Shown in pieces: positions 2,755 to 27,286 of a stretch of DNA of 64,000 nt; position 1 is the stretch's first letter; each line of letters opens with the position of its first letter. The stretch spans positions 55,218 through 119,217 of the forward strand of contig CAZNWJ010000004.1 of the NCBI GenBank assembly GCA_964576925.1, written 5' to 3'. A model generated the notes under the pieces. The model did not search any database, had not been told where the DNA came from, and saw only the letters and a list, made by a program, of their open reading frames with translations. The stretch comes from an uncultured Ignavibacteria bacterium (lineage in GTDB: Bacteria; Zixibacteria; MSB-5A5; CAIYYT01). The position numbers and the translations under genes were made by a program.

Positions 2755-2985
2755 GTGAAGGAGACAGAAATGAAAACACTCGATGTCATCGTCGCGGTCC
2801 TGCTCATCGTGGGCGGACTGAACTGGGGTCTGGTCGGCCTGCTGAACTTCGACCTCGTCGCCACTCTTCTAGGAGACGGCACGATACTCGCGAAGATCGT
2901 TTACGTCCTGGTCGGTTTGTCCGCAATCTACCAAGCCGCTGGATTCAAGGCGATCCAGCGTCGTTGGGGTGTGGTTACCGCCTAA
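2755..2985 (+). CDS. Small membrane protein, DUF378 family
   Basis: 76 aa with two TM segments and the DUF378-like motif GGLNWGLVGL. A GAAGGAG RBS precedes it. The start could instead be the ATG at 2770. Confidence 0.6.
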   Translation: MKETEMKTLDVIVAVLLIVGGLNWGLVGLLNFDLVATLLGDGTILAKIVYVLVGLSAIYQAAGFKAIQRRWGVVTA

Positions 2986-3081
2986 CTGGGCAGAGCATCT
3001 GCGCCGGACCGAGTTCGCTCTGTCCGGCGCCACAATAGATCAAGAGCAGAATAGACATATACAGGCAATAGGAGGAGAAAC

Positions 3082-3663: not shown

Positions 3664-3856
3664 TGACCGAGCTGAAGCAGACCGGACACCGTGCGACTCT
3701 ACCCTTGCTTCCACGATCGACTTCTGTCGTCGGTGTCCGCCTGTTTCGAGCAGATACATCGCCCGTAGCGGCCAGTGCCGAAGGGCAGCAGCAAACTTGA
3801 TACAGTAACAGTAACAGATCCGCGGAGAGCGGAGAAAAACAGGAGGAGAGAGAACA

Positions 3857-6361
3857 ATGTTGAAACTGAGATTTCTGGCGGTGTTTCTGGCGACGGTGTT
3901 CGCAATGCCGCTCGTAGCTCGGGCCGCCGATGCGCGCCTGCAGGTGATTCACAACGCTGCCGATCCGGCGGCGGCCGTGGTCGACATCTATGTTAATGAC
4001 GCACTTTTTGAAGATGATTTTGCTTTCCGGGAGGCCACCGAGTATCGCACCGTGCCGGCCGGCGTGCAATTGAATATCCAGATCGCGCCGGGCAACTCGA
4101 GTTCCTCGGCGGAGGCAATCGCCACGATCCCGGTAACTCTTACCGCGAATCGCACCTATGTTGCGATCGCCAACGGCGTGTTAGGTTCCGGTTTTGCCGC
4201 CAATCCTGACGGCGCAGCGATCGGTTTCCAATTGTTTGCGCGCGACGGACTGCGTGAAAAGGCCAACTGGAACCAGGTGGTTGATCTGATTGCGTTTCAC
4301 GGCGCGACCGATGCACCGACCGTTGACGTGCGCATCCGCAAGGGTGGAAAGACTCCGCTTTTCAATGACCTGAGCTATGGTGAATTCAGCGCTTATCGCC
4401 CGGTAGCGGCGCGCAAGTACATTCTCGACGTGACCCCCGGCAACGATGCCTCGACCGTGGTTGCCTCGTTTGAGGCAGATCTCAACGGTCTGAAGGGCGG
4501 CGCTGCCGTCGTGTTTGCCTCCGGATTCTTGAACCCGGCGGCCAACAACGGTGGTCCGGCCTTCGGTTTGTTCGCCGCGCTGCCGAATGGCGCCGTCGCG
4601 GCTTTGCCGGTAGTGGTGCCGACCGCGCGTCTGCAGGTAATTCACAATGCCGCCGATCCGGCTGCGGCGTCAGTCGATATCTACGTGAATGATAATCTTT
4701 TCGAGAACGACTTCGCTTTCCGCGAAGCCACCGAATTTCGCACGGTTCCCGCTGGTGTCCAGTTGAATATCCAGATTGCGCCGGGTAACAGCTCGTCGTC
4801 CGCGCAGGCGATTGCCACGATCCCGGTGACGCTTGAGGACGGTAAGACCTATGTCGCGATTGCCAACGGCGTCCTCGGTTCCGGTTTCGCCACGAATCCC
4901 GATGGCCGCAGCATCAGCTTCAGCCTCTTTGCCAAGGACGGCATTCGCGAGCGCGCTTCCTGGTTCTATCGCACGGATGTCATCGGATTCCACGGCGCCA
5001 CCGATGCGCCGAACGTTGACATCGTTGCGCGCGGCTGGCCGTTTGGTCCGGTTGTCAATAATGCCTCATACGGAGACTTCGGCGGCTACGCTTCACTGGC
5101 TCCGCGAAAGTACGTTCTGGATGTCACTCCCGGCGACGACAACAACACGGTCGTGGCTTCGTTTGAGGCGGATCTGACCGGGCTGAACGGTGGCTCGGCG
5201 GTGGTGTTTGCTTCGGGGTTCTTGAATCCTGCCGCCAACAACAATGGCCCTTCGTTCGGGCTGTTTGCGGCGCTGGCGAATGGCACGGTCGTTGCCTTCC
5301 CGGCTTACCAGGCCACCGCTCGCCTGCAGGTCATTCATAATGCCGCCGATCCGGCTGCGTCGGTTGTTGATGTCTACGTCAACGACGGCGCGACTCCTTT
5401 GATCGACAACTTCGCGTTCCGCACGGCGACGCCGTTTATCGATGTGCCGGCCGGAGTGCAGTTGAATCTCCAGATCGCCCCGGGCAATAGTTCGTCCTCG
5501 GCGCAGGCGATCGCGACGATCCCGGTAACTCTTGAGCCGAATCAGACGTATGTTGCTATCGCCAATGGCATCCTGGGTTCCGGCTTTGCGGCCAACCCGG
5601 ATGGCGAGGATATCGGCTTCAAGCTGTTCCCGGTTGATGGCGTTCTCGAAGAGGGCCGCTCGCGTTTAGGCGTGAACCTCATCGTGTTCCATGGCGCGAC
5701 CGATGCGCCGACAGTCGATGTCTTTGCGCGCCTCGGTAACTTCACCTATCGCGCGGTGAATGACCTGACCTATGGTGAATTCTCGGACTACAAGTTCTTC
5801 TTTGCGAGGAACTACACCTTGACCGTTACCCCGGGCAACAGCACGACGGGTGTCGCGTCCTTCACCGCCGATCTCAGCGGTCTGGGCGGCGGAGCAGCCG
5901 TAGTGTTTGCTTCAGGATTCCTGAATCCGGCGGCTAACAACAACGGTCCGGCGTTTGGGCTGTATGCGGCGCTGCCGAACGGCGCCGTGGTAGCTCTGCC
6001 GGCGGTTGCGCCGAGTGCGATCGTCGCCATCGACAACGAAGACGAGTTGACGGAGGGGAAGATCGAAGAGCTTGAGCGCGGTGCGACAGCTTTGCCGACC
6101 GATTTTGCCCTGAGCCAGAACTACCCGAACCCGTTCAATCCGACCACGACGATTTCCTTCGCCTTGCCGAAGAGCTCGCCGGTGACCTTGAGTGTATACA
6201 ACATTCTCGGGCAGGAAGTAGCGCGGCTGGTGGACGGACCGATGGCCGCCGGCACGCACCAGGTGACGTTTGAGGCCTCCAATATGGCTTCGGGGATATA
6301 CTTCTACCGCCTGCAGACTGACGGGTTCAGCGAGCAGCGCAAGATGGTGTTGATGAAGTAG
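3857..6361 (+). CDS. Large secreted repeat protein: three ~230-aa tandem repeats, each with two DUF4397-like modules, plus a T9SS C-terminal sorting domain
   Basis: Signal peptide. The three repeats begin ARLQVIHNAADPAA..VDIYVND and share ~80% nt identity. The C-terminus YPNPFNPTTTISFALPK...GIYFYRLQ...KMVLMK is a typical Por/T9SS CTD. Confidence 0.75.
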   Translation: MLKLRFLAVFLATVFAMPLVARAADARLQVIHNAADPAAAVVDIYVNDALFEDDFAFREATEYRTVPAGVQLNIQIAPGNSSSSAEAIATIPVTLTANRTYVAIANGVLGSGFAANPDGAAIGFQLFARDGLREKANWNQVVDLIAFHGATDAPTVDVRIRKGGKTPLFNDLSYGEFSAYRPVAARKYILDVTPGNDASTVVASFEADLNGLKGGAAVVFASGFLNPAANNGGPAFGLFAALPNGAVAALPVVVPTARLQVIHNAADPAAASVDIYVNDNLFENDFAFREATEFRTVPAGVQLNIQIAPGNSSSSAQAIATIPVTLEDGKTYVAIANGVLGSGFATNPDGRSISFSLFAKDGIRERASWFYRTDVIGFHGATDAPNVDIVARGWPFGPVVNNASYGDFGGYASLAPRKYVLDVTPGDDNNTVVASFEADLTGLNGGSAVVFASGFLNPAANNNGPSFGLFAALANGTVVAFPAYQATARLQVIHNAADPAASVVDVYVNDGATPLIDNFAFRTATPFIDVPAGVQLNLQIAPGNSSSSAQAIATIPVTLEPNQTYVAIANGILGSGFAANPDGEDIGFKLFPVDGVLEEGRSRLGVNLIVFHGATDAPTVDVFARLGNFTYRAVNDLTYGEFSDYKFFFARNYTLTVTPGNSTTGVASFTADLSGLGGGAAVVFASGFLNPAANNNGPAFGLYAALPNGAVVALPAVAPSAIVAIDNEDELTEGKIEELERGATALPTDFALSQNYPNPFNPTTTISFALPKSSPVTLSVYNILGQEVARLVDGPMAAGTHQVTFEASNMASGIYFYRLQTDGFSEQRKMVLMK
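3938..6003 (+). repeat. Three tandem intragenic nucleotide repeats (~688-bp period) inside the DUF4397 protein gene
   Basis: The units start near 3938, 4626 and 5317, each with the motif CGYCTGCAGGTNATTCAYAAYGCYGCCGATCCGGC. Confidence 0.8.
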
Positions 6362-7688: not shown

Positions 7689-8798
7689 CTAATGCGTGCC
7701 CTGGATGGTAGTCCAGGAGGTATCGGAGGAGCTGGTGATACCCTTGACGCGCAGATCGAAGTCGTCGGGGTTGGAAGCGTTGCGCATGGCATCCTCGTAA
7801 GTGATATGCCCGGCGCGATAGAGTTTCATGATCGACTGGTCGAACGACTGCATGCCGTACTGCACCTGGCCGGCTTCGATAAACTCGATAATCGACGAGG
7901 TCTTGATCGGATCGATGATGCAATCGCGGATGGCGCCGGTGGTGACGGCTACTTCGACTGCCGGAATTCGGCCTGGCATATCGGCGCGCGGGAGCAGACG
8001 CTGGCAGACGATCGCCTTCATGGTGCCGGCCAGCAGCAAACGGATTTGCTGATGCTGGTGCGGCGGGAAGAAGGAGATGATACGGCTGATGGTTTCGACG
8101 ACGTTCATCGTGTGGAGCGTGGTCAAGACCAGATGGCCGGTATCGGCGGCGGCGAGGGCAATGCCCATCGTCTCGGCGTCACGAATTTCACCGATCAGGA
8201 TCACATCCGGGTCCTGACGAAAAGCGTGGCGCAGCGCGGCGGCGAAGCTCTCGGAGTCGGCGCCAACCTCGCGCTGGCAGATGATCGATTTCTTGTCGCG
8301 ATAGATGTATTCGATCGGGTCTTCGATGGTGACGATGTTTTCCGCCCGGTGCGAGTTAATGTACTCGATGACGGCGGCCAGCGAAGTCGACTTGCCGGAA
8401 CCGGTGGTGCCGGTGACGATAATCAGGCCGCGGCGGGTTTCGCAGAGATCGGAAATGACCTCGGGCAGGTTGAGATCCTCGAAAGAGGGCACCAGCGTGT
8501 TGACGGCACGGATCGCGATGCCGGGAGTACCGCGCTGGCGATAAAGATTGATACGGAAACGGCCGAGCTTGGTGACCGAAAGGGCCAGGTCCATTTCGCT
8601 GCGCGCGGCAAACCGTTTCTGCTGTTCGGGAGAAAGAATTTGGGAGACGATTTCGGTCATCGACTCCTTGGAGATCGGTTCGGTATTGATGACGACCAGT
8701 TTGCCGTGGACGCGCAGGGTCGGTTTGATCCCCACACGCAGGTGCAGGTCGGAGGCGGCTTGATGCTGCATCTCCACCAGCATGTCACGCAGGTTCAT
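7689..8798 (-). CDS. pilT: Type IV pilus retraction ATPase PilT
   Basis: N-terminus MNLRDMLVEMQHQAASDLHL. Walker A TGTTGSGKST. The PilT/PilU secretion-ATPase core is conserved. Confidence 0.95.
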   Translation of the reverse strand: MNLRDMLVEMQHQAASDLHLRVGIKPTLRVHGKLVVINTEPISKESMTEIVSQILSPEQQKRFAARSEMDLALSVTKLGRFRINLYRQRGTPGIAIRAVNTLVPSFEDLNLPEVISDLCETRRGLIIVTGTTGSGKSTSLAAVIEYINSHRAENIVTIEDPIEYIYRDKKSIICQREVGADSESFAAALRHAFRQDPDVILIGEIRDAETMGIALAAADTGHLVLTTLHTMNVVETISRIISFFPPHQHQQIRLLLAGTMKAIVCQRLLPRADMPGRIPAVEVAVTTGAIRDCIIDPIKTSSIIEFIEAGQVQYGMQSFDQSIMKLYRAGHITYEDAMRNASNPDDFDLRVKGITSSSDTSWTTIQGTH

Positions 8799-8857
8799 CG
8801 GTCACTCCTTATGGTTGTTCCGGAATCCTGCTGGTGCCGCGGGCGGAGTGCGCGCGC

Positions 8858-9376
8858 TTACGCCGGCTGGACGAGGAAAAGCACCTGACCGAACTCCACC
8901 GGAGAGGCGTTTTCGACCATGCGTTGGACAAGCACGCCGTCGAATTCCGCTTCGATTTCGTTCATCAGTTTCATCGCCTCGATGATGCAGACCGTCTGGC
9001 CCTTCGTGACCCGCTGGCCAACGTCGACGAACGCGGGCGCACCGGGCTCAGGAGAGGTGTAGAAGGTTCCAACCATAGGCGATTTGATTTCCTTGCCTGC
9101 CGGAGCCGCCACGGGGGGCGGAGCTGCAGCAGGTTGCGGAGCGGGCGCGACCGGGGCGGCAGCGACGGGCGCTGCAGCGGCCGGTTCCAGCGGCGGCAAG
9201 GTCGGCGCCACCTGCGCTTTGGGAATCGTGATCGTCGAGCCGTGGCCGTTACCGTTGGTTCCGGTCGTGCTACGCTTGACGATGGTTACATTGCTGAACA
9301 TCGTTTTGATGTTGAGCGACTCGATTTCCGACGATTCCACCAACTTCACCAGTTTCCGGATAGTTGATTCTCTCAT
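8858..9376 (-). CDS. accB: Acetyl-CoA carboxylase biotin carboxyl carrier protein (BCCP)
   Basis: Biotinyl-lysine motif [11 protein letters not shown] in a C-terminal lipoyl-like domain, preceded by an Ala/Pro-rich linker. Confidence 0.9.
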
Positions 9377-9436
9377 TACGTTCTATGACCGGGTTGAATC
9401 AACCCTACTCCTGTTTATCGAGTTTTCGAGCAAAAA

Positions 9437-10507
9437 CTAAAGCTCCAGCAACGACTTGTCCGCGCGATTCATTACGCGGCAACCGTTTCTGGTAATCACC
9501 ACATCATCTTCCACCCGTACGCCGCCCCAGCCGTCAAGGTAGATACCGGGCTCGACCGTCACGACCATCCCCGGCTGTAAGACAGTGTCCGACAGCGGCG
9601 ACAAGCGGGGTTCTTCGTGAATCAGCAGGCCGATCCCATGACCGAGGCCGTGGCCAAAGTTTTTCGCGTAGCCCGCCTTGGCGATGATATCGCGCACGTG
9701 TTTATCGACAGCCGACCCTTTCAAACCGGCGCGCGCCTTTTTGGTTCCGGCGATTTGCGCCTTGAGGACGAGGTTGTAGATCTTCTTCTGCTGCGCGGAT
9801 GCCTTGCCGACGACCACCGTGCGCGTGATGTCGGAATGATAGCCGCCGTAGATAGCGCCGAAATCAAGGGTAACGAATTCCCCCTTCTTGATGACTTTGG
9901 AAGAAGCGCGGCCGTGCGGCAGCGCCGAGCGATAGCCGGAGGCGATGATTGTTTCGAACGACGGGTCTTCGGAGCCGAGCATCTTCATTTGATATTCGAG
10001 TTCCGCCGCGACTTCGTTTTCGCGCACGCCGGGCTTGATGATCTGCAAAATGCGTCCGAAGGCGACATCGGCAATATCGACGGCCTTCTGGATTTTCTTG
10101 ATCTCGTCGGGTTCCTTGACTGAGGCGAGCGCCTCGACCATACCGCCGGTCGGTGCCAACAGCGCTTGCGGCAGCAGCGCGCGAATCATGTTGAGATTCT
10201 TAACGGTCAGATAAGCTTCCAGGTAGCCGACGCGCAGATTCTTTTGGAGCAGCCGCTTGATTTTCGGGATCTCGGTGTACAGCTCGCGCTGGGCGATCAG
10301 GATCTTGGCGCCCTTGACTTCAGAGCGCACCTGCGCCTTGTAGCGAAAATCGGTAATGAAGTGCGCTTCATTGGTGAAAACAACGAGCAACCCGTTCGAG
10401 CCGGAATAGCCGCAAAGGTATTTGACCTGCGACAGCTCGCTGACGAGGAGGCAGTCGAGATTGCTATCCTTGAGCAGTGCTTGTAGTCTCTTGATTCGTG
10501 CTTGCAT
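9437..10507 (-). CDS. pepP: Xaa-Pro aminopeptidase / M24 family metallopeptidase
   Basis: Creatinase-type N-terminal domain plus a pita-bread C-terminal domain. Metal-ligand region HGLGHGIGLLIHEEP. Confidence 0.9.
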   Translation of the reverse strand: MQARIKRLQALLKDSNLDCLLVSELSQVKYLCGYSGSNGLLVVFTNEAHFITDFRYKAQVRSEVKGAKILIAQRELYTEIPKIKRLLQKNLRVGYLEAYLTVKNLNMIRALLPQALLAPTGGMVEALASVKEPDEIKKIQKAVDIADVAFGRILQIIKPGVRENEVAAELEYQMKMLGSEDPSFETIIASGYRSALPHGRASSKVIKKGEFVTLDFGAIYGGYHSDITRTVVVGKASAQQKKIYNLVLKAQIAGTKKARAGLKGSAVDKHVRDIIAKAGYAKNFGHGLGHGIGLLIHEEPRLSPLSDTVLQPGMVVTVEPGIYLDGWGGVRVEDDVVITRNGCRVMNRADKSLLEL

Positions 10508-10513
10508 AAGCTC

Positions 10514-11125
10514 CTAACCACACAGTTTCAGTTTTTCGTAGATCCGGGGGTCGCCCGGGGAGTCTTGCAGCAGGCGGGCATAGATAGCACGCGCCTTGTC
10601 TTTATACCCCTGTTGGGCATAAAGGTCGGCTGCTGTTTCCGTCCAGAGAATCTCGTGTTCGGGCCGATCGACCGACTCCTGGTAGCGTCCCAGTTCCTCC
10701 AGGCGCGCTGTTATGCCGGGGGATCCGGGTTCCAGTTGGGCAGCCTGCAGATAGTATTTCAGCGCCTCAGCCAATTGACCGGCCTGCCGAAACAAGTCGC
10801 CCAATTTCACCAAGGTCAGCGGATTATCGGCATCCCGCTTCAGCGCCTCCAAGTAAGCAAAGGTGGCCGATACCGACTTGCCGCGCCGAATATAGAGGTC
10901 ACCCAGCACTTGGAGCCCGTTGGCGTAATTGGGGTATTGCCGAATTCCTGCTTGAAGCAGGTCGTAGGCGACATCCAATTCGCCGGCGTCGATCATAATG
11001 GCGGCCTGACGCGCGAAGTCATACCCGATCTTGGTGTCGCCAGAGGCCACTTCTGTGGTCTCAATTTCAGAGGCAGACTGCTCCCCCTGCATAGAGACCT
11101 TGCCTTTGCGGGCAGAATACTCCAT
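10514..11125 (-). CDS. TPR repeat protein
   Basis: Several TPR-like helical repeats (YANGLQVLGDLYIRRGK, LVKLGDLFRQAGQLAEALKYY). First gene of the minus-strand operon. Confidence 0.7.
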   Translation of the reverse strand: MEYSARKGKVSMQGEQSASEIETTEVASGDTKIGYDFARQAAIMIDAGELDVAYDLLQAGIRQYPNYANGLQVLGDLYIRRGKSVSATFAYLEALKRDADNPLTLVKLGDLFRQAGQLAEALKYYLQAAQLEPGSPGITARLEELGRYQESVDRPEHEILWTETAADLYAQQGYKDKARAIYARLLQDSPGDPRIYEKLKLCG

Positions 11126-16098: not shown

Positions 16099-17202
16099 TC
16101 AGGCACACGGCGGCGGGCCGCCGGCGAAGATGTAGTTGATCAGGTAGATCGCATCCGAGATGTTGACGAGGCCATTGCTATCGGCATCACCCGCCCGGAG
16201 CGGCACCGGCGGAGGTCCACCTCCGAAGATGTAGCCGATGATGTAGATCGCATCGGAGATGCTGATCACCTGGCTGCCGTCGGCATCGCCGCAGAGGTAG
16301 GCGAACTCGATAGTAAGCATGGCACTGGTGAGCGGAGTCGAGGCCGACCAGGTATCGATCATTAAATAGTATTCTCCCGGAGGGAGCACGAGTTGTTCGA
16401 TTCCGAACGGGTTGGCGAGATTGCTGGTTGCGGAAGCGATACAGCTGCTGCCCACGGGACAGTCAGAACTGATCAAAAAGGCGCTGCCGGCAACCTGTCC
16501 GGGATCAAGAGTGAAATTCAGTCCCAGGGCACTGGCAAGCTCAAAAGAGTAGAACAGATCTTCACCGAGATCGTAGCCGCCGAGACAGGTGGCTGTATAG
16601 TCGTTTCCGGATCCCGCATTCGAGAATGGGCCTTCAGTGAAAGGAAGTTCCGCCGGAGTGAGGGTTCCGAAACCGAGCGGGAGATTGCAGTCGACGCCCC
16701 AGGGATCGACGAAGACCTCGTTGACCGTCACGTCGAATTCGGGGATGCATTCCGGAGCCGGCCAGGTATCGACGATGATGTAGTAGATGCCTGCCTCGAG
16801 CATAACCGGCGGTGTGTAGTGCGGTACACCGGTAGATTTCGTGCTCATGGCTAGGCAGTCACCGTCCGGCGGGCAGGTATCGTCGATAGCGATACCGGTC
16901 CAAGCAGTGCCGTGAGGATTCAGTTCAATTACCGCGAACATGAAGCTAAGAATCTCCAGGCGAATAATGTAATCCTCGCCATTGTCGTAGCTACCGAGGC
17001 AGGTTGAATTGTAGTCGTCGATGTGGCCGCAGGTTGTGAGTGCGGGAAGTTGAACGATCATCGAGCCGGGATAAAAGGTGACTTCATGCGCTGATTCGCA
17101 TTTGCGATTCACCGATTCCGGGTCGGCAGTTTCTGCCGGCAGGCGGGCTGAGCCTATAGCAATAGTGGCGGCGACCAGAAACGCCAGGGACTGGAAGCGC
17201 AT
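16099..17202 (-). CDS. Secreted protein of unknown function with an internal ~130-aa duplication and a dockerin-like C-terminal tandem module
   Basis: Signal peptide. Two internal repeats (TCLGSYDNGEDY... and TCLGGYDLGEDL...). C-terminus CGDADGSQVISISDAIYIIGYIFGGGPPPVPLRAGDADSNGLVNISDAIYLINYIFAGGPPPCA. Confidence 0.6.
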   Translation of the reverse strand: MRFQSLAFLVAATIAIGSARLPAETADPESVNRKCESAHEVTFYPGSMIVQLPALTTCGHIDDYNSTCLGSYDNGEDYIIRLEILSFMFAVIELNPHGTAWTGIAIDDTCPPDGDCLAMSTKSTGVPHYTPPVMLEAGIYYIIVDTWPAPECIPEFDVTVNEVFVDPWGVDCNLPLGFGTLTPAELPFTEGPFSNAGSGNDYTATCLGGYDLGEDLFYSFELASALGLNFTLDPGQVAGSAFLISSDCPVGSSCIASATSNLANPFGIEQLVLPPGEYYLMIDTWSASTPLTSAMLTIEFAYLCGDADGSQVISISDAIYIIGYIFGGGPPPVPLRAGDADSNGLVNISDAIYLINYIFAGGPPPCA

Positions 17203-17549: not shown

Positions 17550-18137
17550 ATGTTTCGCAGCAAAGCCAAGAGCCTGAAAAGCGAATTCGAGCAAGAAGCG
17601 ATGGTGCATACGGACGCGCTGTATCGGACGGCGCTCCGGATGACAAAGAACGCTTCCGACGCCGAGGACTTAGTCCAGGAGACGTTACTCAAGGCTTATC
17701 GTAGTTTCGACCGGTTCGAGAAAGGCACCAATGCCAAGGCGTGGTTGTTCAAGATCATGACCAACACGTTTATCAACAACTACCGGGCGAGACAGAAAGA
17801 GTCGACCAGCGTTTCCTTTGACGACATCGACGACAGCGTGATGCACACGCAGTTGCCGGGGTTGGTTGCAGAGAGCAGCGATCCCGAGAAGGATTTTTTC
17901 AACAAGATCATCGACCGCGATGTGGTCGCGGCGATCGAGAAACTTCCGGAAGAGTTCCGGATGGTGGTGGTGCTGGCCTTCAACGAAGGTTTTGCCTACC
18001 AGGAGATTGCAGACATCATGGGAATTCAGGTTGGAACCGTCAAGTCGCGACTTCACCGCGGGCGCAAGATCCTGCAGAAGCTGCTCTGGGAGTATGCGAA
18101 TGACAAGGATCGTGCAAAGGAACAAGCGGAACAGTGA
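17550..18137 (+). CDS. ECF-family RNA polymerase sigma factor (sigma-70 regions 2 and 4)
   Basis: Region 2 [39 protein letters not shown]. Region 4 [28 protein letters not shown]. Confidence 0.9.
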
Positions 18138-18916
18138 ACTGCCGGGAAGTATTAGCTAAGCTGTACGACTACCTTGACGAAGAGCTGACCGCATCAGACC
18201 GTCAAGACCTCCAGAAGCACCTCGAACACTGCAGCGATTGCCTGCACAAGTATAATCTCGAAGAACAGTTCAATCGCGTAATCGCCGGCAAGCTTGACTC
18301 GCCGTGCGAGACGAGCCAGTTGAAGAAGCGAATCCTGGTGGAGATCGCCAAGATCGACCAGCAACAGGGCGGAGCAGCATCCCCGGGGCGGCGCAATATT
18401 CTTTACCTGTTCATGCCGATTGCCGCCGCGGCGCTGGTGGCTCTCATTCTAATCAACCCGTTTTCGTCCAAAGGTTCGGTCCTGGAGGCGGTTTATCCGT
18501 TTGCACACGAGCACAGCAAGTGTCTCGATCACGTAATGCAGTACATCGTGCAATCGCACGATCCGGCGGAAGTGCGGGCGGCGCTACAGCACATTGGCGC
18601 GATGCCTGATGATCTCTTTGCGCCGGCAACGGACGGGCAATTCCAGTTAGCGGGCGCGGCGATTGCGCATGTCAACAATCATGACCGGGTACACCTCGAC
18701 TACTCCTATAAGGGAGATGCCATCTCAGTATTTGTCCTCGATAAGAACACAATCGACAAATCGCACTTCGATCGTATGGAACATAATGGCAAGACGATTT
18801 ACGCCGGTTCGTGCCCGAAATTCCAGTATGTAATCTGGGAGTGCGAGCAGCATGAATGTGTAGCGGTGAGCCTGATTGACGAAGAGAAGCTGATTGATTT
18901 TGCTTCGGTATTTTAG
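18134..18916 (+). CDS. Anti-sigma factor (zf-HC2 type) with one TM helix and a periplasmic C-terminal domain
   Basis: N-terminal motif [16 protein letters not shown]...[33 protein letters not shown]. Overlaps the sigma gene by 4 nt (ATGA). Confidence 0.75.
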
Positions 18917-18998
18917 AGCTTAACGACAACGGAATCGACTTCAGATCGCCGGCGGTGGAAACATCGGCGGCGATTTTGGTTTGGGGGGAAATTTGTGA

Positions 18999-19028
18999 TT
19001 GACAGGCGCTGGGAATAATTGATATCAT
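18999..19028 (+). promoter_or_regulatory. Candidate promoter of the R-M island
   Basis: TTGACA at 18999-19004, an 18-nt spacer, and an extended -10 of TG-n-TATCAT at 19020-19028. Confidence 0.4.
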
Positions 19029-19169
19029 CGCTCTTGAAATGCTCAGAGAGGGTGGTGTAACATCGGAAAGCACATCTTAATTCGAGACATTCCGGAAGAA
19101 GTTGAGGGCTGGATTGAGGAAGAACGAAGTCGGTCGCTCCAGAGCCAGAAGGAGTTTCTTCTCGGGATA

Positions 19170-20288
19170 TTGAAGCAGGCAAAGCGTGGTAACGTCGAGC
19201 CGAATCTCTTTGAGAAACCGGCTCCACGTATCGCGCCTCGGGCAATTGCGGCCCCCTTCGTGTTCATTGATCTCTTTGCAGGAATCGGAGGCTTCCGTAT
19301 CGGCCTCGAACGACTGGGCGGGCGTTGCGCGTTTTCATGTGAATGGGACAAGAACGCTCAAAGAACTTATCATGCATGGTTTGGTGAGATTCCTGCCGGT
19401 GACATTCGTAACGTCAATCCATGCGACATCCCTGATCATGACTTGTTGGCAGCGGGATTTCCCTGTCAGCCATTTTCAATTGCTGGCGTGTCCAAGAAGA
19501 ACAGCCTGGGTCACGAACACGGATTCAAGGACAAGACCCAGGGTACTCTATTCTTCCACATAGCCGAGATCATGCAGATGAAGAGACCTCCGGTTGCGAT
19601 TCTGGAGAATGTGAAGAATCTGCTTTCACACGAACGAGGTCGAACATGGCAGGTCATCAAGTCGACACTTGAAGAATTGAATTACGTCGTGTTCCACAAG
19701 ATCATAGATGCGTCCGGCTACGTGCCTCAGCACCGCGAAAGAGTCTTCATTGTCTGCTTTGACAAGGAGGTCTTTGGGGCCAACCCCGACTTTAGTTTCC
19801 CAGCGCCGGTCTCTGACACTGCGCCGAAGTTCAAGTCTATTCTTGAGAAGAAACCAGGCTCGAAGTATATTCTGACTGACCATCTTTGGGAATACCTGCA
19901 GAACTATGCTGCTGCGCACAAAGCGAAAGGCAATGGCTTTGGATTTGGAATGACGGACCTGAATGGAGTGAGTCGAACCCTGAGCGCTCGCTACTACAAG
20001 GACGGATCAGAGGTCTTGATCCCCCGAAATGGTGGCAACCCCCGCAGATTAACTCCACGGGAGGCCGCACGATTGATGGGTTTCGATGATTCGCTTGAGA
20101 TCGTTGTTTCGGATACGCAGGCCTACAAGCAGTTCGGGAACGCGGTTGTACCGGCGGTCGTGGAGGCTGTCGGGGGCGAAATTGTCAAGACCATGTTGCT
20201 CAAGTTTCAGATGATCGAGAATGGGTGTTTGCTCAAAGGACGAGACATCACTGTGAACTCGAATAAGGACATGATGATCGGAGGCTAG
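19170..20288 (+). CDS. dcm: DNA (cytosine-5)-methyltransferase
   Basis: Motif I FIDLFAGIGGF, IV GFPCQPFS, VI ENVKNLL, VIII QHRERVFIV, X GNAV. TTG start. Low local GC. Confidence 0.95.
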   Translation: MKQAKRGNVEPNLFEKPAPRIAPRAIAAPFVFIDLFAGIGGFRIGLERLGGRCAFSCEWDKNAQRTYHAWFGEIPAGDIRNVNPCDIPDHDLLAAGFPCQPFSIAGVSKKNSLGHEHGFKDKTQGTLFFHIAEIMQMKRPPVAILENVKNLLSHERGRTWQVIKSTLEELNYVVFHKIIDASGYVPQHRERVFIVCFDKEVFGANPDFSFPAPVSDTAPKFKSILEKKPGSKYILTDHLWEYLQNYAAAHKAKGNGFGFGMTDLNGVSRTLSARYYKDGSEVLIPRNGGNPRRLTPREAARLMGFDDSLEIVVSDTQAYKQFGNAVVPAVVEAVGGEIVKTMLLKFQMIENGCLLKGRDITVNSNKDMMIGG

Positions 20289-20292
20289 GGCG

Positions 20293-21273
20293 ATGAACAT
20301 TACAGGTTTGCTTAAAGGCTCTGAGTGGGACTATCCGTTCTTTAAGGTGCTGGCAAGAAACGACACCGGAGAGGCTCAAGGACATCAATCCGGATTAGTC
20401 CTTCCCAAAGACCTGCGAGACTACATGCCTGCACTTGAAGAACATAATGTCTCACAGATCTTTCCCACCGTGGATAGAATCCTCACTGCAGAGTTGTACA
20501 AGGGCAGAGTTCTTCTCGACAAATCAAGCCTTCGTTACCAGATTCAAACATGGGGTGGGAAGCGAACGCCGGAGGCGCGAATTACTGCAGGCATTCGAAC
20601 TTTGACGAATCTGGCGAAAGTTGGGGACATACTTGTATTTCAGAGGCGAATCGACTCGGTCGAGGAGTATCGCTTAATATTAATCGAAAGAGCTTCGGCA
20701 GAATATCGTGCTATCGAACGCTTGGTAGCAGGTAGAAAATGGGGCCCACTTAATGCACGTGCTGCTCCAATAACAATTGAGCAGTTTTCGCAAGCCAAGG
20801 AAGAGATGATGCAGACCGCCGACAAAACATTCAGACTGCAGGCAGAACCGCGAAGAATCTCAGGCACTGGCGTTACAAGGATCGCAAGAGACTCTGCATT
20901 CCGCGAAGTAGTAAAGCTACAATATGCGTTCAAGTGTTCGATCAGTGGATATGGGCTCTCTACACAGAGTTCTCACTACGAGGTGGAGGCAGCTCACATA
21001 GTTCCGAAGGAGCACGGAGGACCTGACGACCCACGAAACGGACTATGCCTTACACGCACTTTGCACTGGGCGTTTGATCGGGGCCTAATTGGCGTTACCA
21101 CTGAAAGAAGGGTGTTTATTCCGGAAGATATCAGGTCAATGCCTCAGAACGACTTGCTGCTGCAATTTGACGGGAGGCCTCTTGCAATCCCAAAGAATCC
21201 GAATCTTGCTGCTCACGAAGATGCGCTAGCCTGGCACAGAACGAATGTAGTTCGAGCCTTGGACCATGGTTGA
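20293..21273 (+). CDS. Putative restriction endonuclease: uncharacterized N-terminal DNA-recognition region plus C-terminal HNH nuclease
   Basis: HNH motif EAAHIVPKEHGGPDDPRNGLCLTRTLHWAFDRG at the C-terminus. Sits between dcm and vsr on the same strand. The N-terminal ~200 aa have no obvious family. Confidence 0.65.
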   Translation: MNITGLLKGSEWDYPFFKVLARNDTGEAQGHQSGLVLPKDLRDYMPALEEHNVSQIFPTVDRILTAELYKGRVLLDKSSLRYQIQTWGGKRTPEARITAGIRTLTNLAKVGDILVFQRRIDSVEEYRLILIERASAEYRAIERLVAGRKWGPLNARAAPITIEQFSQAKEEMMQTADKTFRLQAEPRRISGTGVTRIARDSAFREVVKLQYAFKCSISGYGLSTQSSHYEVEAAHIVPKEHGGPDDPRNGLCLTRTLHWAFDRGLIGVTTERRVFIPEDIRSMPQNDLLLQFDGRPLAIPKNPNLAAHEDALAWHRTNVVRALDHG

Positions 21274-21679
21274 TGTCCTGACACCTGGTCAGCGTCGCAA
21301 GAATATGGCTGCGATAAAGTCACATGACACGAAGCCTGAACTCAGAGTTAGACGCGTTGTACATAGACTCGGATTTCGCTTTGCTCTTCACAAGAAAGAC
21401 CTCCCAGGAAAGCCTGACTTAGCCCTGACGAAGCATCGAAAGGTCATCTTGGTTCATGGGTGTTACTGGCACATGCACAATTGCAGGTACGGACGCGTAG
21501 TTCCGAGAACAAACGCTCGGTTCTGGCGTGCAAAACGCGAGACAAACGTTGAAAGGGATCGCAGAAACCTCAGAGAGCTTCGTAAGCTGAAATGGAAAGT
21601 ACTCGTTGTTTGGGAGTGTCAAACAAGAAATCAAGAGAGATTGAAAAGGCGACTTCAGAAGTTTCTATTCAGCAACTGA
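21266..21679 (+). CDS. vsr: Very-short-patch repair endonuclease (T:G mismatch)
   Basis: N-terminus TPGQRRKNMAAIKSHDTKPELRVRRVVHRLGFRFALHKKDLPGKPDL. Catalytic region HGCYWHMH. Overlaps the HNH gene by 8 nt. Confidence 0.9.
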   Translation: MVDVLTPGQRRKNMAAIKSHDTKPELRVRRVVHRLGFRFALHKKDLPGKPDLALTKHRKVILVHGCYWHMHNCRYGRVVPRTNARFWRAKRETNVERDRRNLRELRKLKWKVLVVWECQTRNQERLKRRLQKFLFSN

Positions 21680-21707
21680 AGTATTGGCTTGCTGGCTTCC
21701 TCGCCCC

Positions 21708-22685
21708 CTACCATCCTAGCACGATGGCGAACATCAGCGGGGCGACGATCGAGGCGTCGGATTCGATGATGTACTTCGGCGTGTCGATTCCCAACTTGCC
21801 CCAGGTGATTTTCTCGTTGGGGACGGCGCCGGAATAGGACCCGTAGCTGGTGGTCGAGTCGCTGATCTGGCAGAAGTAGCCCCAGACCGGGACATTGGTG
21901 CGCTGCAGGTCCTGGTGAAGCATCGGTACGACGCAGATCGGGAAATCACCCGCGATGCCGCCGCCGATCTGGAAGAAGCCGATTGTCGATTTCTTCGTCG
22001 TGGCGGTGTACCAATCGGCGAGCCAAGTCATGTATTCGATGCCGGTGCGGACGGTGTGGACGTTCTTGATGTCGCCTTCAATGCAGTGTGCCGCATAAAT
22101 GTTGCCCATGGTGGAGTCTTCCCAGCCGGGCACGACGATGGGGAGATTCTTCTCGGCGGCGGCGACCATCCAGGAATCTTTCGGGTCGATCTGGTAGTGC
22201 AGCTTGAGCGCGCCGGAGCGGATAATCTTGTACATGAACTCGTGCGGGAAATGGCGCTCACCGGCTTTGTCGGCCTTGAGCCATTCGTCGAGGAGGACTT
22301 TCTCGAGCCGACGCAGTGCTTCCTCTTCCGGAATGCAGGTATCGGTAACGCGATTGAGGTGACGGTCGAGCAGGGCCTGCTCATCGTGCGGCGTCAGGTC
22401 GCGATAGTGCGGCACGCGCTCGTAGTGATCGTGGGCGACCAGATTGAAGAGGTCTTCCTCGAGGTTGGCGCCGGTGCAGCTAATGATGTGCACCTTATCG
22501 CGGCGAATCATTTCGGCAAGAGAGAGGCCGAGCTCGGCGGTGCTCATGGCGCCGGCCAGCACGACCATCATCTTGCCGCCGGTTTCGACGTGATGAACGT
22601 AGGCGTTGGCGGCGTCGATCATGGCGGCCGCATTGAAATGGCGATAGTGATGCTTCAGGAACCTGGTGATTTCGCCGTTGCTCAT
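21708..22685 (-). CDS. Deoxyhypusine synthase-like protein (DHS family; bacterial polyamine metabolism)
   Basis: Core IISCTGANLEEDLFN and GGGIAGDFPICVVPMLHQDL match DHS-like NAD-binding domain signatures. Confidence 0.8.
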   Translation of the reverse strand: MSNGEITRFLKHHYRHFNAAAMIDAANAYVHHVETGGKMMVVLAGAMSTAELGLSLAEMIRRDKVHIISCTGANLEEDLFNLVAHDHYERVPHYRDLTPHDEQALLDRHLNRVTDTCIPEEEALRRLEKVLLDEWLKADKAGERHFPHEFMYKIIRSGALKLHYQIDPKDSWMVAAAEKNLPIVVPGWEDSTMGNIYAAHCIEGDIKNVHTVRTGIEYMTWLADWYTATTKKSTIGFFQIGGGIAGDFPICVVPMLHQDLQRTNVPVWGYFCQISDSTTSYGSYSGAVPNEKITWGKLGIDTPKYIIESDASIVAPLMFAIVLGW

Positions 22686-22706: not shown

Positions 22707-23267
22707 TTAGTCTTCGTTGTCAAGAATCAGCATGGCGGCGGTAATGACCGTCGTCCAAAGGCCGTTCTTGTCGCCTTCGGCAGATTGCGTGATGTTACGC
22801 GAGTAGACGACTTCGCCTTTGAGTCTCCACTGCTCTTTGTTCTGGTCCCACGACTTGTCGAGATCGATCTCGAGACCCATCGTGGTCGCGAGCATCTGGA
22901 CGGCGAGGTCCTCGGCGTAGTCGCCGGAGAATTTCTGTGTCTGTCCGAAACCGTGGTGTTCGGACAAATAGCCGAACTTGGATTTGTCTTTTGGCATCGC
23001 CAAACCGATTGAAGCCGAGACCAGGCGATTGGGTTCGTTGGTGGCGTCGCGGCTCATGACGCAGAAAGCAATCTGGCCGGGCTCGAAGTACTTAAGTCCT
23101 TCGCGGCGCGTAATCAACTTGCAGTGCGGCGGAAAGATCGACGAGACGTTGACGAGATTGAGGTATGCGATTCCGGCGTCGCGCAGCGCCAACTCGAATG
23201 AGGCGAGCTTCTCTTTGTGATGGCCCACACCCTTGGTTAAGAAGATCTTTGTCGGTACGAAGTTCAA
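22707..23267 (-). CDS. pdaD: Pyruvoyl-dependent arginine decarboxylase
   Basis: N-terminus VPTKIFLTKGVGHHKEKLASFELALRDAGIAYLNLVNVSSIFPP, with the SS cleavage/pyruvoyl site, is diagnostic of the PdaD family. Confidence 0.85.
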   Translation of the reverse strand: MNFVPTKIFLTKGVGHHKEKLASFELALRDAGIAYLNLVNVSSIFPPHCKLITRREGLKYFEPGQIAFCVMSRDATNEPNRLVSASIGLAMPKDKSKFGYLSEHHGFGQTQKFSGDYAEDLAVQMLATTMGLEIDLDKSWDQNKEQWRLKGEVVYSRNITQSAEGDKNGLWTTVITAAMLILDNED

Positions 23268-23543: not shown

Positions 23544-25454
23544 ATGAGACGTTTGCTACTACCCCTTGTCATAATCGTCCTCACAACTCTCTCTCTGCAA
23601 GGCGCTGATTTGTACAAAGTTACGATCAGCGGCGCGGATGAGGCCAAGACTCTTCAAGCGCTGGGACTGGACGCCGTTGTCAAGATCAGCGATGGCTATC
23701 TGGTCATAGTGGATCAAGGTGAGGCGGCACAGTTGCTCAATTCGGAGTTGAAATCTGTGCGAATCTTCTCGGGGATCAACCGAAATGAACTCGCGCTTGA
23801 TCTGCGCACCAACGACGAGAACGCCGGGCGGTTTGAGTTGGTGTTTCAGGAGGGCGGGCTGCGGTTGTTCTATGTGCCCGGAGGTTATGATCCGAGTTCA
23901 GAGATGACGCCTTCGCTGATGCCGTTGCCGGCATCGCTGCGAATTTCGTATCGCGAGCCGCGGACCGGGGCGCCGAAGGGTATGCCGACGTCGACGGCGC
24001 TGGAATCGTTGCTAGGGACGATTTCGCAGGATTCGCTATACTCCTACGTCGCTAAGTTGCAGAGCTACTACCGCCGGCTGGCCGGAACGCCGAGTATCTA
24101 CCTGGCGCGCGACTGGATAAAAGCCAAATTCGAGTCGTTTGGTTACGACTCGGTTTATCTTGACGGTTGGCAGCAATACTTCAACGGCCAGATGAACAAT
24201 TGTTACAATGTCGTCTGCGTCAAGGTCGGAACGACGTATCCGGACCTGGAGATTATCGTAGGGGCGCATCATGACGGCGTCTACAATTCACCGGCGGCGG
24301 ATGACAACGGTTCCGGAACGGCGGGCGTACTGGAAATGGCGCGGGCGTTGGCCGATACGCCGACGGAAGTGACGTTCAAGTTCATTACGTTTGACGCCGA
24401 GGAGTTTGGGCTTTACGGGTCCTACCATTATGTCAATGGCGCTGTCGCGCGAGGGGATCAGATCCTGGTGATGCACAACATGGATATGATCGCGTTTCTT
24501 TACAATTCCAATGCGGCGACGGTTTACCATGGCGATGACCCATTCTACGCTCAATGGTGGTCCAATATCGCGCAAGCCAATTACGGGATTACCGGCTATT
24601 TAAGCGGCAACAGCTCGGGATCTGACCACTACCCGTTTACACAGAACGGTTACGATGCGCTGTTTATAATCGAGGACATCTTTTCGAGTGTCTATCACAG
24701 TCCGCGCGACAGCACGACGTACATGAATTTCGAGTACATGAACCGCATGGTGCGCGCATCGCTGGCGATGGTCTATGCGGTGGCGAATGGCGGGGATTTT
24801 GACAACGACGGCGTGCCCAATACGCAGGACAATTGCGTCTTCAATCCTAACCCTGCGCAGGAAGATCCTGACGGCGATTTGATTGGCAGCGCCTGCGACA
24901 ACTGCCCCGACTATCCGAATCCCGGACAAGAGGATGAAGACGGCGACGGAGTCGGCGACTACTGTGACGGCAAGGTGCATGTAACGGCGATTCGACTTCC
25001 CGACGCCTACTATGGAGAGCCTTACAACTATCAATTTGAATGCATCGGCGGGACCGGACCGTTTAGCTGGTCGTTCTTCGGAGGTGATCTGCCGTTTGGC
25101 TGCGATTTCCAGAGCCCGGCCGGAATCCTGACCGGCACACCGAGCTACAAAGCGACCTTCTACTTCACGATTGCAGTTCTCGATGCCGGGACGCCGCCCA
25201 GCGCCGATACACAAAGTGTGTGGATTGTTGTCACCGACCCCGGGTATTTGTGTGGCGATGCTGACGCCAGCGGCAACGTGACGGTGTCAGACGCGGTGTT
25301 TATTATCAACTACATTTTTGGCGGGGGACCGGCGCCGAATCCTGACGAGCGCGGGGATGTCGACTGTACGGGTATGACGACCGTCTCGGATGTCGTCTAT
25401 CTGATCAATTATATATTCGGCGGTGGGGCAGCGCCCTGTGCAGCGTGTCCTTGA
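23544..25454 (+). CDS. Secreted M28-family aminopeptidase with thrombospondin type-3 Ca-binding repeats, an Ig-like domain and a dockerin-like C-terminal module
   Basis: Signal peptide. M28 metal ligands ([38 protein letters not shown]). TSP3 repeats [46 protein letters not shown]-terminus [31 protein letters not shown]...[29 protein letters not shown]. Confidence 0.85.
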
Positions 25455-25481: not shown

Positions 25482-25515
25482 GAGCGGGAGCCGGCAGACT
25501 CCCGCTTTTTGTTGG
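25482..25515 (+). terminator. Rho-independent terminator after the M28 peptidase gene
   Basis: AGCGGGAG / CTCCCGCT stem followed by TTTTGTTGG. Confidence 0.7.
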
Positions 25516-26026
25516 CGTCTTGAAGACGTGAAGGTCTCGGACGCTGGTCTCGAGGATCCACAATTAGAGAGCACCGGTTCACAATTTCGCGCCTGCTCAA
25601 ATGTAGTATTGGGAGTTGTGGTATGTCAGGCGCGAAATCAAGAACCGGCGCAACGGAGACAGAGTGCAAACGATGTCGTGTCTGGCGGGAGCCTCCTCAT
25701 TGTGCAGGCGGGCGGGCGAGTGGTTCTTGTGAACGCTGGAACATACCGGCGGAATATGATCGGATTAGTCCGCGAATAATCCCATAGACCTTGGCTGAGC
25801 CTCCTAGATAGCGAACTTGCAACGTCGCTATAAAGTACTGATTACGAATGTCTTGCTGTAAATCAGAGCGTCTCCTTGACATTGTACGTTAGTTAGTGTT
25901 AATTAAAGACAATGTATGTCTTGTTACTTTTTTCACAAGCTGTGACACTTATATGACAATAGAAGTCGAGTTTTCTTTAACTTCAGGACAACGAAAGACG
26001 ATAGTCTTAGGTGAGTATAGGTAGAT

Positions 26027-27286
26027 ATGGAATTTGGGATCATCGGGACATCAATCTGGCAGCAAAATGTAAAGCTGCTGGAGCATCTGACGATCGATCG
26101 TGACAGCCGTGTGGAGACGCTGAAGCGGTTGAAGGATCATCTATCGCTCGATGAGCTGATTTACCTGTCAACGTGCAATCGCGTCGAATTTGTCTATGTC
26201 TCCTCGGGACGATTCGGCGGCTCGAAGTTGCTGCACCGATTGATCGACTTCTTTTTCCGCGGACAACAGGGGTTCGGATTTTTCCCGAACGACTTCTATC
26301 ATTACACAGGCAGAGAGGCAGTTGCGCATTTGTTTCGCACGACTGCCTCGCTCGAATCGCTGGTCGTGGGAGAGGCCCAAATCGCCGGGCAGTATAAAGA
26401 AGCGTACATGGAGGCCCTGGCGACTGGGTTGGCAGGGGTTGCCCTAAAGGACATTTCGGAAGAGGCGCTGGTGGTGGCGAAGAAAGTCAAGCGGGAAACG
26501 GCGGTCGGCAGCGGGTCAGTTTCGATGGCATCGCTGGCGGCCGATGAACTTGCCTCGGCCTGCAACGAGAATTCGCTGATCGCATTGATTGGCGCCGGCA
26601 CAATGACAATCAAGCTGGCGCGATATGTCCTGGATCACAAGCTTGGCAGGCTGCTGTTCGTCAATCGCACCGTTGAAAAGGCGGCGAAGTTTGTCGAGCA
26701 ATTTGGCGGCAGCGCGATATCGCTGGATGAATTCATTGCCGAGCCGCAACAGGTAGATGCGATCGTATCGGCGACAGCCGCTACCGAGGCGATCTTTGAC
26801 CAGAATTTTCTCGATCGATTACCTAAGCAGGATTTGCCCGTAGTGTGTATTGACCTGGCGATCCCGAAGGATTTCTGCGATTGCTTCGGCAGTTCCGACA
26901 AGGTGCGGCTGGTTGACATTGCCTATCTGCGGTCGCAGTGTTCGAGCAACTTGCGGCAGAAATTTATTGAGACGGGTAAGGCCAACGAAATCGTGCGCGA
27001 AGCAGTAAATGTCTATATGTCTGATCGCATCGAAGTTTCGCTCAAGCCGATCTTTACCGACAGTTTCCAGGAATCGATGCAATTAGCCAAGCGCGCCCTC
27101 GACGATCTTTTCGCGAAGAAGGTGACCTCGCTCAATGACGAGGAGAAAGACGCGATTTATCGCCTGGTCACCAAGCTGATCGCCAATTCCGCCTACCAGC
27201 CAGCCAAGGTGCTTTCCGACAAGCTGGCCAATCTTACCGACGAAATCGACCTTTCGGAACTCCGCCGCCGCAAAAACGCGATATGA
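26027..27286 (+). CDS. hemA: Glutamyl-tRNA reductase
   Basis: LSTCNRVEFVYV active-site Cys region. NADPH-binding GAGTMT. C-terminal dimerization helix. Confidence 0.95.
   Translation: MEFGIIGTSIWQQNVKLLEHLTIDRDSRVETLKRLKDHLSLDELIYLSTCNRVEFVYVSSGRFGGSKLLHRLIDFFFRGQQGFGFFPNDFYHYTGREAVAHLFRTTASLESLVVGEAQIAGQYKEAYMEALATGLAGVALKDISEEALVVAKKVKRETAVGSGSVSMASLAADELASACNENSLIALIGAGTMTIKLARYVLDHKLGRLLFVNRTVEKAAKFVEQFGGSAISLDEFIAEPQQVDAIVSATAATEAIFDQNFLDRLPKQDLPVVCIDLAIPKDFCDCFGSSDKVRLVDIAYLRSQCSSNLRQKFIETGKANEIVREAVNVYMSDRIEVSLKPIFTDSFQESMQLAKRALDDLFAKKVTSLNDEEKDAIYRLVTKLIANSAYQPAKVLSDKLANLTDEIDLSELRRRKNAI

Follow-up and report, generated by a model that had tools for sequence, protein, structure and literature searches.

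The window analysed here, a stretch of 64,000 nt from an uncultured Ignavibacteria bacterium in whose positions all coordinates are given, carries three co-directional genes encoding a Dcm-type C5-cytosine methyltransferase (M), a putative restriction endonuclease (R) and a Vsr T:G mismatch endonuclease (V). Together they quite probably constitute a self-contained 2.7-kb Type II restriction-modification (R-M) cassette that is most likely specific for CCWGG, compositionally foreign and absent from the corresponding site of a sister genome. The system is of an ordinary kind; what is new is the architecture of its nuclease, the exchangeable position of the nuclease gene (the R slot) and the predicted non-AUG start of the methylase. 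An original prediction made on this DNA had already described a compact Type II unit with its own promoter, a view upheld by the family-wide linkage of R to a methylase and by the EcoRII-type nucleases that occupy the R slot of sister cassettes; it did not see that R has an EcoRII-N-like reader domain, that M is extended at its N-terminus and probably begins at a non-AUG codon, or that the cassette takes the place of 305 bp of the sister spacer.

In the proposed mechanism, one sigma-70 promoter would drive M, R and V. Translated from a weak ATC start, M would methylate the inner C of CCWGG to 5-methylcytosine (5mC) and so protect host DNA; its N-terminal domain, probably of the ribbon-helix-helix (RHH) type, would most likely repress the cassette promoter through the TGATATCA repeat at the -10 element. 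R would read CCWGG by means of a B3 domain whose binding would be blocked by methylation of either strand, and would cut, probably at or near the site, with a tethered HNH domain of the McrA/TagI type; since this HNH offers a single active site, cleavage of both strands would call for a dimer or for two nicks. V would nick 5' of the T in T:G mismatches resulting from deamination of the 5mC made by M. Both the methylation sensitivity and the cleavage position of R are predictions.

The nuclease R, its family and its predicted target

The gene identities Dcm, HNH and Vsr proposed originally stand, with matches to PF00145 and TIGR00675 for M, to the HNH_2 domain PF13391 for R (50.9 bits, cut-off 21) and to PF03852 and TIGR00632 for V. 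According to an AlphaFold (AF2) model (pLDDT 90.8, pTM 0.82), R begins with a B3 reader that ends at about residue 176 and is joined through a short flexible linker to a McrA-type HNH domain (193-326). Foldseek pairs the modelled N-domain with DNA-bound EcoRII-N (3HQF_A; probability 1.00, TM 0.65 over 160 columns) and also with the B3 domains of UbaLAI and BfiI (2C1L, 3ZI5) and plant B3/ARF domains; the C-domain is paired with the HNH of TagI (rmsd 2.7 A, 124 columns), VcaM4I, ScoMcrA and EcoKMcrA. A profile built from an alignment of 27 members of the R family retrieves both halves from the PDB, with TagI (6GHS) at E = 5.7e-7 and the EcoRII N-domain at E = 6e-5 (3HQF) and E = 3e-4 (1NA6). The catalytic residues H235, N249 and H258 of the HNH are invariant in the 27 relatives. 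The EcoRII-C model PF09019 has no match in R, whose C-terminal half is the HNH.

The EcoRII-N-HNH architecture occurs widely in metagenomes. Among 5.8 billion proteins searched, 705 are relatives of R; the best 120 of these are nearly all full-length (about 320-330 aa) and 41-50% identical, and many of them carry both PF09217 (EcoRII-N) and PF13391. Relatives are already labelled "putative restriction endonuclease" in databases; an exact-sequence look-up of the window R gave no record, and PADLOC holds no full-length model of R, only its HNH domain being matched. A literature search, with REBASE outside its scope, returned reviews and unrelated work, none of it on an EcoRII-N/B3-HNH enzyme.

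A restriction role for the HNH protein is supported by the obligate association of its family with Dcm-like methylase genes. Such a methylase, 52-65% identical to the window M, lies near the R homologue in 68 of 83 loci (80 metagenomic, two from genomes and one from a plasmid); in 14 of the 15 loci that lack it, one of the flanks is shorter than 1.3 kb, and the remaining one has vsr at the contig edge. Where at least 2.5 kb is available on both sides, M is present in 25/25 loci and Vsr in 20/25. Gene orders vary (M-R-V at 26 loci, M-V-R at 11, R><V-M at 6), and the linkage of M and R is therefore selected, not merely inherited. The Thauera plasmid pTha01 carries a member of the family as dcm-vsr-"HNH endonuclease". 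This is the opposite of the PUA-HNH modification-dependent enzymes, which are usually not found near methylases (PMC6765204).

The strongest indirect evidence that R is a restriction enzyme acting on CCWGG comes from sister cassettes in which EcoRII-type nucleases sit on the same chassis. The closest relatives of M (70-75% identity) are found in M-R(-V) cassettes with a different R: an EcoRII-C-only protein of 255-256 aa (PF09019) in L173, L174, L175, L177 and L178, and a full EcoRII-N+EcoRII-C protein in L176. Their Vsr is 63-69% identical to V and is present in all but L176, the contig of which ends inside R. The chassis of methylase, Vsr and promoter carries at least three alternative nucleases, each assembled from components of CCWGG systems. 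A recent swap of the catalytic half alone can be rejected, as the N-domain of the window R is only 22% identical to the EcoRII-N of L176, so that the whole R gene differs. An RHH-type M is found in none of the 83 R-family loci, and the combination of an RHH-type M with EcoRII-N-HNH was seen in the window only. As to L177, a distant relative carries this sister cassette at another locus; its positions 2513-6210 match 7699-10462 of the window at about 71% nucleotide identity (M24 peptidase, biotin-lipoyl and T2SSE genes), and its cassette adjoins a TPR gene, at a distance of about 8.5 kb from where the window island lies.

Unmethylated CCWGG is the predicted target because the homologies of M, R and V all point there. 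In the structure of EcoRII-N with CCTGG, base contacts are made by N28, H36 and Q37 of the N-arm and by Y85, R94, E96 and R98 of the C-arm, and a C5-methylated inner C in either strand abolishes binding (PMC2770665). All seven residues are kept in R, where an HMMER alignment places them at N23, H31, Q32, Y82, R91, E94 and R96; within the family, N23, Y82, R91 and E94 are invariant, Q32 and R96 nearly so, and H31 is a His in most members and otherwise N or K. M is 47% identical to E. coli Dcm, the variable target-recognition region included, and the two proteins have the target-recognition core KYILT..LW.YL..GNGFG.GM..RTLSARYYKDG.E.LI in common. The best NCBIfam match of M is the Dcm subfamily PRK10458 (355 bits; model cut-off 710) and its best PADLOC match is DrmMII (456 bits), which reportedly methylates CCWGG. 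V scores 134.6 bits against TIGR00632 (cut-off 97.85) and 99 bits against PF03852; it is 44% identical to E. coli Vsr, with the catalytic and Zn residues D51, H64, C66, H69, H71 and C73 aligned.

The methylase M, its start and its promoter

M matches PF00145 with 283 bits (cut-off 22) and TIGR00675 with 299 bits (cut-off 100.65). The canonical motifs attributed to it by the original prediction can be read in its translation (I, IV, VI, VIII, IX and X) as DLFAGIGGF, GFPCQPFS, ENVKNL, QHRERV, RRLTPREAARLMGF and QFGNAVVP. The simplest reading of the sequence in front of them is that M is 36 codons longer than annotated, its gene starting at 19062 rather than at 19170. The frame is open back to 19038, ATG, GTG and TTG are absent before 19170, and the upstream stretch translates to IGKHILIRDIPEEVEGWIEEERSRSLQSQKEFLLGILKQA; a Shine-Dalgarno sequence, GAGGG (19047-19051), precedes an ATC codon at 19062. 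With the upstream peptide as query, a full-library phmmer search found 22 relatives that are significant library-wide (single-stretch matches, E down to 1e-8); the majority of matches start at residue 2-6 of a protein that is small or truncated, and among those inspected several extend into FIDLFAGIGGF. Homologues of about 395-410 aa span 95-99% of the 408-aa M, and in tblastn alignments residue 1 of M, encoded by the ATC, falls on the ATG of homologues.

Putative non-AUG starts are also present among the homologues themselves: ATC at position 31 of L177 and 333 of L178, and ATA at position 4923 of L176, each 6 nt past GGAGG or AGGAGG. The deposited methylases of L176-L178 are shortened likewise, to 366-371 aa. 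Across the window, L176, L177 and L178, the 35 codons upstream of 19170 have a pN/pS of 0.18-0.41, as against 0.58-2.5 in a +1 frame control, with synonymous sites largely saturated; the region upstream of 19170 is therefore protein-coding. Initiation at AUC or AUA is predicted from these sequences; in E. coli such codons reportedly initiate at about 1% or less of the level of AUG.

Modelled by AF2 as a monomer, the N-domain of M consists of an extended segment followed by two helices (residues 12-25 and 29-41), with a pLDDT of about 80, and it resembles VapB (NF050181) weakly, at E = 0.034 and below the cut-off. We provisionally label it RHH. The methylases beside other EcoRII-N-HNH genes have differing N-terminal extensions (L041, L047, L052, L056, L060, L063, L066, L073, L080, L081; L067, L072, L084), some of them an Xre-type helix-turn-helix (..REIA..LGV..RTVRRWE..), others a domain of about 100 aa that is unrelated; regulators thus seem to have been fused repeatedly to the Dcm-like methylase family.

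The promoter anticipated at 18999-19028, sigma-70-like and with an extended -10, is supported. It consists of a -35 TTGACA (18999-19004), an 18-nt spacer containing GGGAATAA and an extended -10 TGaTATCAT (19020-19028), and it scores 11 of the 12 sigma-70 consensus positions in addition to the TG of the extended -10. When the upstream regions of seven cassettes (the window and six others, with proteins at 50-75% identity) are aligned, 20 columns do not vary; they take in the entire TGATATCA core of the extended -10, the greater part of the -35 and the spacer's GGG block. As this non-coding DNA is better conserved than the adjacent coding sequence, a function is indicated for the promoter region. 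The palindrome TGATATCA overlaps the -10, and homologues have a second copy (TGCTATCA/TGATATCA), TG(A/C)TATCA, directly after it; in the window this second operator copy is degenerate. In M.EcoRII, M.SsoII and M.Ecl18kI, fused N-terminal domains repress the promoters of their own genes (PMC12707154). By analogy, the N-domain of M may bind the TGATATCA repeat and act in autorepression.

The balance tips, if only slightly, towards a more general view. EcoRII-N-HNH would be a widespread Type II family for CCWGG and would share its place in a conserved cassette of RHH-methylase and Vsr with at least two other interchangeable nuclease modules, EcoRII-C and EcoRII-N+C; the methylase/repressor gene of that cassette would, in one sub-clade, deliberately start at AUC or AUA for a low level of methylase or repressor.

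A foreign block at a variable site, and competing explanations

The GC content of 18917-21707 is 0.504 (50.4%), compared with a mean of 0.565 (sd 0.019) for windows of the same length slid over the 64 kb; a value as low is reached in just 0.3% of them, and the 15 lowest all overlap the cassette block. The GC contrast noted by eye in the original prediction is thus real, although the surroundings, put there at about 60%, measure 56.5%. GC at third codon positions (GC3) is 0.474 in R (z = -5.5), 0.486 in V (z = -5.2) and 0.594 in M (z = -2.4), relative to 0.688 +/- 0.039 in 32 long open reading frames (ORFs) elsewhere in the window; within the window, the composition of the block hence differs from that of host ORFs in both GC and GC3, the kind of comparison originally proposed as a check.

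A sister genome shows the same site without the triad. The locus L085, on a 340-kb contig of GCA_964584025.1 and reached through the 90%-identity cluster of the anti-sigma protein, has the order sigma, anti-sigma, 374-bp spacer, DHS (deoxyhypusine-synthase-like gene), ArgDC, M28 peptidase and hem genes. In blastn alignments it matches the window at 91% identity up to 18986 and at 85-90% from 21709 on; between these breakpoints, 305 bp of L085 and 2722 bp of the window are without mutual counterpart. The left breakpoint lies directly past a shared hairpin (inverted repeat 18945-18957/18962-18974), also found in L085 at 10808-10845 and forming the last block common to both genomes, and the right breakpoint is the DHS stop codon. 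The sharp boundaries drawn at 18990-21700 in the original prediction agree with these breaks to within a few bases. Its picture of a probable horizontal island, not conserved at the site, is likewise sustained. Two short contigs from other samples, L086 and L087, show the same state as L085. The left end of the cassette, AAATTTGTGATTGACAG, is common to the cassette of L178. The block is strain-variable and compositionally foreign; two lineages alone do not polarise the difference, and it is because the composition is foreign that a gain is preferred to a loss.

Further repeats and differences were noted. A 25-nt palindromic repeat, GGATTCCCGCCTGCGCGGGAATGAC, is intergenic in the window (41753-41777) and occurs in L085 at about 11040-11065, inside the replaced 305-bp spacer; the short-read contigs L086 and L087 end at it, and it is probably a dispersed REP-like element. 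The two genomes also differ by an indel at 25514-25724 (211 bp versus 72 bp in the sister genome), and GC dips to 0.42 at 25600-26200, upstream of a hemA-like gene.

Several points weigh against the block being a foreign, CCWGG-specific Type II cassette. Its specificity rests on homology, and the match of R to the Pfam EcoRII-N model PF09217 (18.6-20.3 bits) falls below the gathering score of 25. CCWGG is undepleted, with an observed/expected ratio of 0.94 in the window and 1.06 in L085, an absence of avoidance that neither supports nor contradicts the target and is uninformative or argues for recency at most. The N-domain of EcoRII acts as an allosteric effector and does not direct cleavage, and the role of the B3 domain as sole specificity determinant of R is therefore something we infer. 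The nearest solved relatives of the HNH of R are modification-dependent enzymes. The ATC start could leave the N-domain of M poorly translated or untranslated, and the N-terminal peptide finds no match in Pfam (E up to 10) or by phmmer in the PDB, which tells against the RHH label. Finally, two genomes leave insertion versus loss unpolarised; integrase, transposase and flanking direct or terminal inverted repeats were looked for at the cassette and none was found, nor was a conserved right end when the cassettes were compared.

The HNH relatives just mentioned (TagI, VcaM4I, EcoKMcrA and ScoMcrA are the best solved ones) raise the question as to whether R is instead a modification-dependent Type IV nuclease of the McrA/TagI kind, standing beside an orphan Dcm-Vsr pair in a defence cluster. 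R also matches the NCBIfam model of a phosphorothioate-dependent restriction endonuclease, NF045808, with 96.4 bits (cut-off 180), its HNH part aligning at profile positions 156-284, and E. coli has Dcm-Vsr pairs without R. A Type IV enzyme is nonetheless most improbable: the reader is EcoRII-N-like with its base contacts kept, and 5mC blocks EcoRII-N and does not attract it; a Dcm-like M is present at every one of the well-flanked loci, unlike the situation of the PUA-HNH enzymes (PMC6765204); sister cassettes hold EcoRII-type nucleases in the R slot; and an enzyme that depends on 5mC would poison its own host next to a CCWGG methylase, unless it disregarded methylation in that sequence context. 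It is also unlikely, if less so, that the R-M system is as described but directed at another target, for instance CCNGG or another CC/GG-containing site. SsoII/Ecl18kI-type systems (CCNGG) have the same framework (PMC4081073), and H31 varies between H, N and K in the R family; yet the residues with which EcoRII-N reads the central T:A pair (N28, Q37, Y85 and R98) are conserved in R, the target-recognition core of M matches that of E. coli Dcm, and DrmMII is the best PADLOC match.

Two further explanations concern the state and the history of the CCWGG cassette. The system might be decaying, M having lost its start by a change of ATG to ATC, with the N-domain unmade, R perhaps inactive and a Dcm-Vsr pair remaining; the lack of ATG, GTG or TTG between 19038 and 19170 and the degenerate second operator copy would fit. 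We hold this to be very unlikely in view of the three independent homologues in which a strong Shine-Dalgarno sequence likewise precedes an ATC or ATA start, the low pN/pS at near-saturated synonymous change over the 35 codons, the catalytic and DNA-contact residues of R, all intact in a confident model, and the absence of frameshifts and stops from the three genes. As for history, there is a small chance that the site carried the triad ancestrally and that the lineage of L085 lost it by deletion, so that the block would be no recent island: the site is known from two genomes, the sister spacer holds an unrelated 305 bp with a repeat element, which would make both states derived, and integrase, transposase or target-site duplication were not found. 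Against this stand the GC3 values of R and V, which fall short of those of host genes by 5 sd, in a block that is the GC minimum of the 64 kb, a closest R homologue that is only 50% identical among the matches listed, and cassettes of almost the same architecture and promoter that are found on a plasmid and at loci unrelated to this one. The composition is foreign either way, and timing alone would change.

Layout, surroundings and relation to known systems

The coordinates of the cassette and of its features are collected below.

Features of the M-R-V cassette and of its left and right borders, in window positions
Feature	Position	Strand	Remarks
M-R-V cassette, inserted	18987..21707	+	2721 bp, in place of 305 bp of the L085 spacer
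Terminator-like hairpin and T-run, end of the sigma/anti-sigma operon	18945..18978	+	host DNA outside the island
Sigma-70 promoter	18999..19028	+	
Operator-like element	19020..19045	+	
M, annotated form, 372 aa	19170 (TTG)-20288	+	from the ORF list
M, proposed extended form, 408 aa, Dcm-type C5-cytosine methyltransferase	19062 (ATC)-20288	+	
M N-terminal DNA-binding-like domain, residues 1-43	19062..19190	+	
R, putative restriction endonuclease, 326 aa	20293..21273	+	from the ORF, the junction sequence and the AF2 model
R N-domain, residues 1-176, EcoRII-N-like B3 pseudobarrel	20293..20820	+	
R C-domain, residues 193-326, McrA/TagI-type HNH (beta-beta-alpha-Me)	20869..21273	+	
V, Vsr very-short-patch-repair T:G mismatch endonuclease	21266..21679	+	
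Spacer of 28 nt, from the vsr stop to that of the convergent DHS-like gene	21680..21707		

An ORF scan finds all three genes free of frameshifts and stops. They had been described as co-directional and overlapping; the first holds throughout, and the second only for R and V, which overlap by 8 nt (ATGGTTGA), an arrangement that suggests translational coupling. Between M and R there is a gap of 4 nt, and a Shine-Dalgarno sequence, GGAGG (20280-20284), stands 8 nt 5' of the ATG of R. Upstream, the island adjoins the ECF sigma (17550-18137) and zf-HC2 anti-sigma (18134-18916) genes, as originally stated, the end of the latter included; downstream lie the convergent DHS-like gene ending at 21708 and a pyruvoyl arginine decarboxylase gene. 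That convergent end is as predicted, the distance being one less than the 29 bp given, with 28 nt between the vsr stop (21679) and the DHS stop codon (21708-21710). A terminator scan of 21680-21707 found none, and transcription from the island and from DHS probably runs on into the opposite unit; the 3' spacer that DHS has in the sister genome is gone at the vsr/DHS junction of the window.

The DHS-like gene itself (21708-22685, minus strand) encodes an unusually conserved protein, 74-81% identical to proteins of Gemmatimonadota, Verrucomicrobiota, Acidobacteriota, Planctomycetota and Bacteroidota, with no close relative, among the matches listed. It is paired with the pyruvoyl-dependent arginine decarboxylase gene (22707-23267, minus strand), a pairing that suggests a polyamine pathway. 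Secreted-looking proteins encoded at 16099-17202 (minus strand) and 23544-25454 (plus strand) have C-terminal dockerin-like tandem repeats, the DNA of which also cross-matches 61345-61546 of the window.

Systems acting on CCWGG (EcoRII, PspGI, MvaI and UbaLAI) are the textbook case of different proteins reading one sequence. If the reading of R as a CCWGG-specific enzyme is true, a B3 reader with an HNH cutter would be a further solution beside the described PD-(D/E)XK folds, and would represent a natural conversion of a Type IV-style reader-nuclease chassis to Type II by a swap of the reader; R could also serve as a methylation-sensitive reagent. The exchange of the nuclease slot, with methylase, Vsr and promoter kept, would offer a clean model for the recombination of R-M modules, and the AUC/AUA start of the methylase-repressor makes a testable claim on the translational control of R-M establishment. 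It would also mean that standard gene callers systematically truncate these methylase genes, the public proteins measuring 366-372 aa.

Compared with the EcoRII R-M system (R.EcoRII being a Type IIE enzyme for CCWGG), the window cassette has the same predicted target, a homologous B3 reader with the same contact residues and, like M.EcoRII, a Dcm-type methylase with a fused N-terminal domain, here putatively DNA-binding. It differs in that R is devoid of the EcoRII-C PD-(D/E)XK domain and would cleave by its HNH, so that the B3 domain must target and not allosterically activate; moreover, the regulatory domain of M looks like RHH, whereas that of M.EcoRII is a helix-turn-helix, and the window operon encodes a Vsr. 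The reuse of an EcoRII-N reader with another nuclease has a precedent in UbaLAI (CC/WGG), where the partner is MvaI-like (PMC5766183). However, the catalytic domain of UbaLAI is itself a CCWGG-specific PD-(D/E)XK, while the HNH clade of the window enzyme has little intrinsic specificity. The likeliest mechanistic analogue of R is the Type IIS enzyme BfiI, in which a B3-like domain is the sole sequence reader and is tethered to a non-specific nuclease, although BfiI has a metal-independent PLD nuclease in place of the HNH, arranges the two domains in the opposite order and acts on another target.

With TagI, EcoKMcrA, ScoMcrA and VcaM4I, R shares a homologous C-terminal HNH and the layout of an N-terminal reader followed by the nuclease, but the readers of these enzymes (SRA, NEco, SBD and PUA) bind modified DNA and a cognate methylase is absent; by comparison with such Type IV enzymes, the window reader is of the methylation-blocked type and its gene sits beside a methylase. 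The Dcm-Vsr pair of E. coli resembles M (47%) and V (44%) in sequence, in the adjacency of the genes and in the logic of repairing 5mC deamination; E. coli K-12 lacks a linked restriction gene, whereas in the window R sits between M and V. Finally, M has in common with M.EcoRII, M.SsoII and M.Ecl18kI an N-terminal extension on a C5 methylase, in M a putative DNA-binding one, and a conserved operator-like repeat over its own promoter, and differs from them in the predicted fold of that extension and in its predicted non-AUG start.

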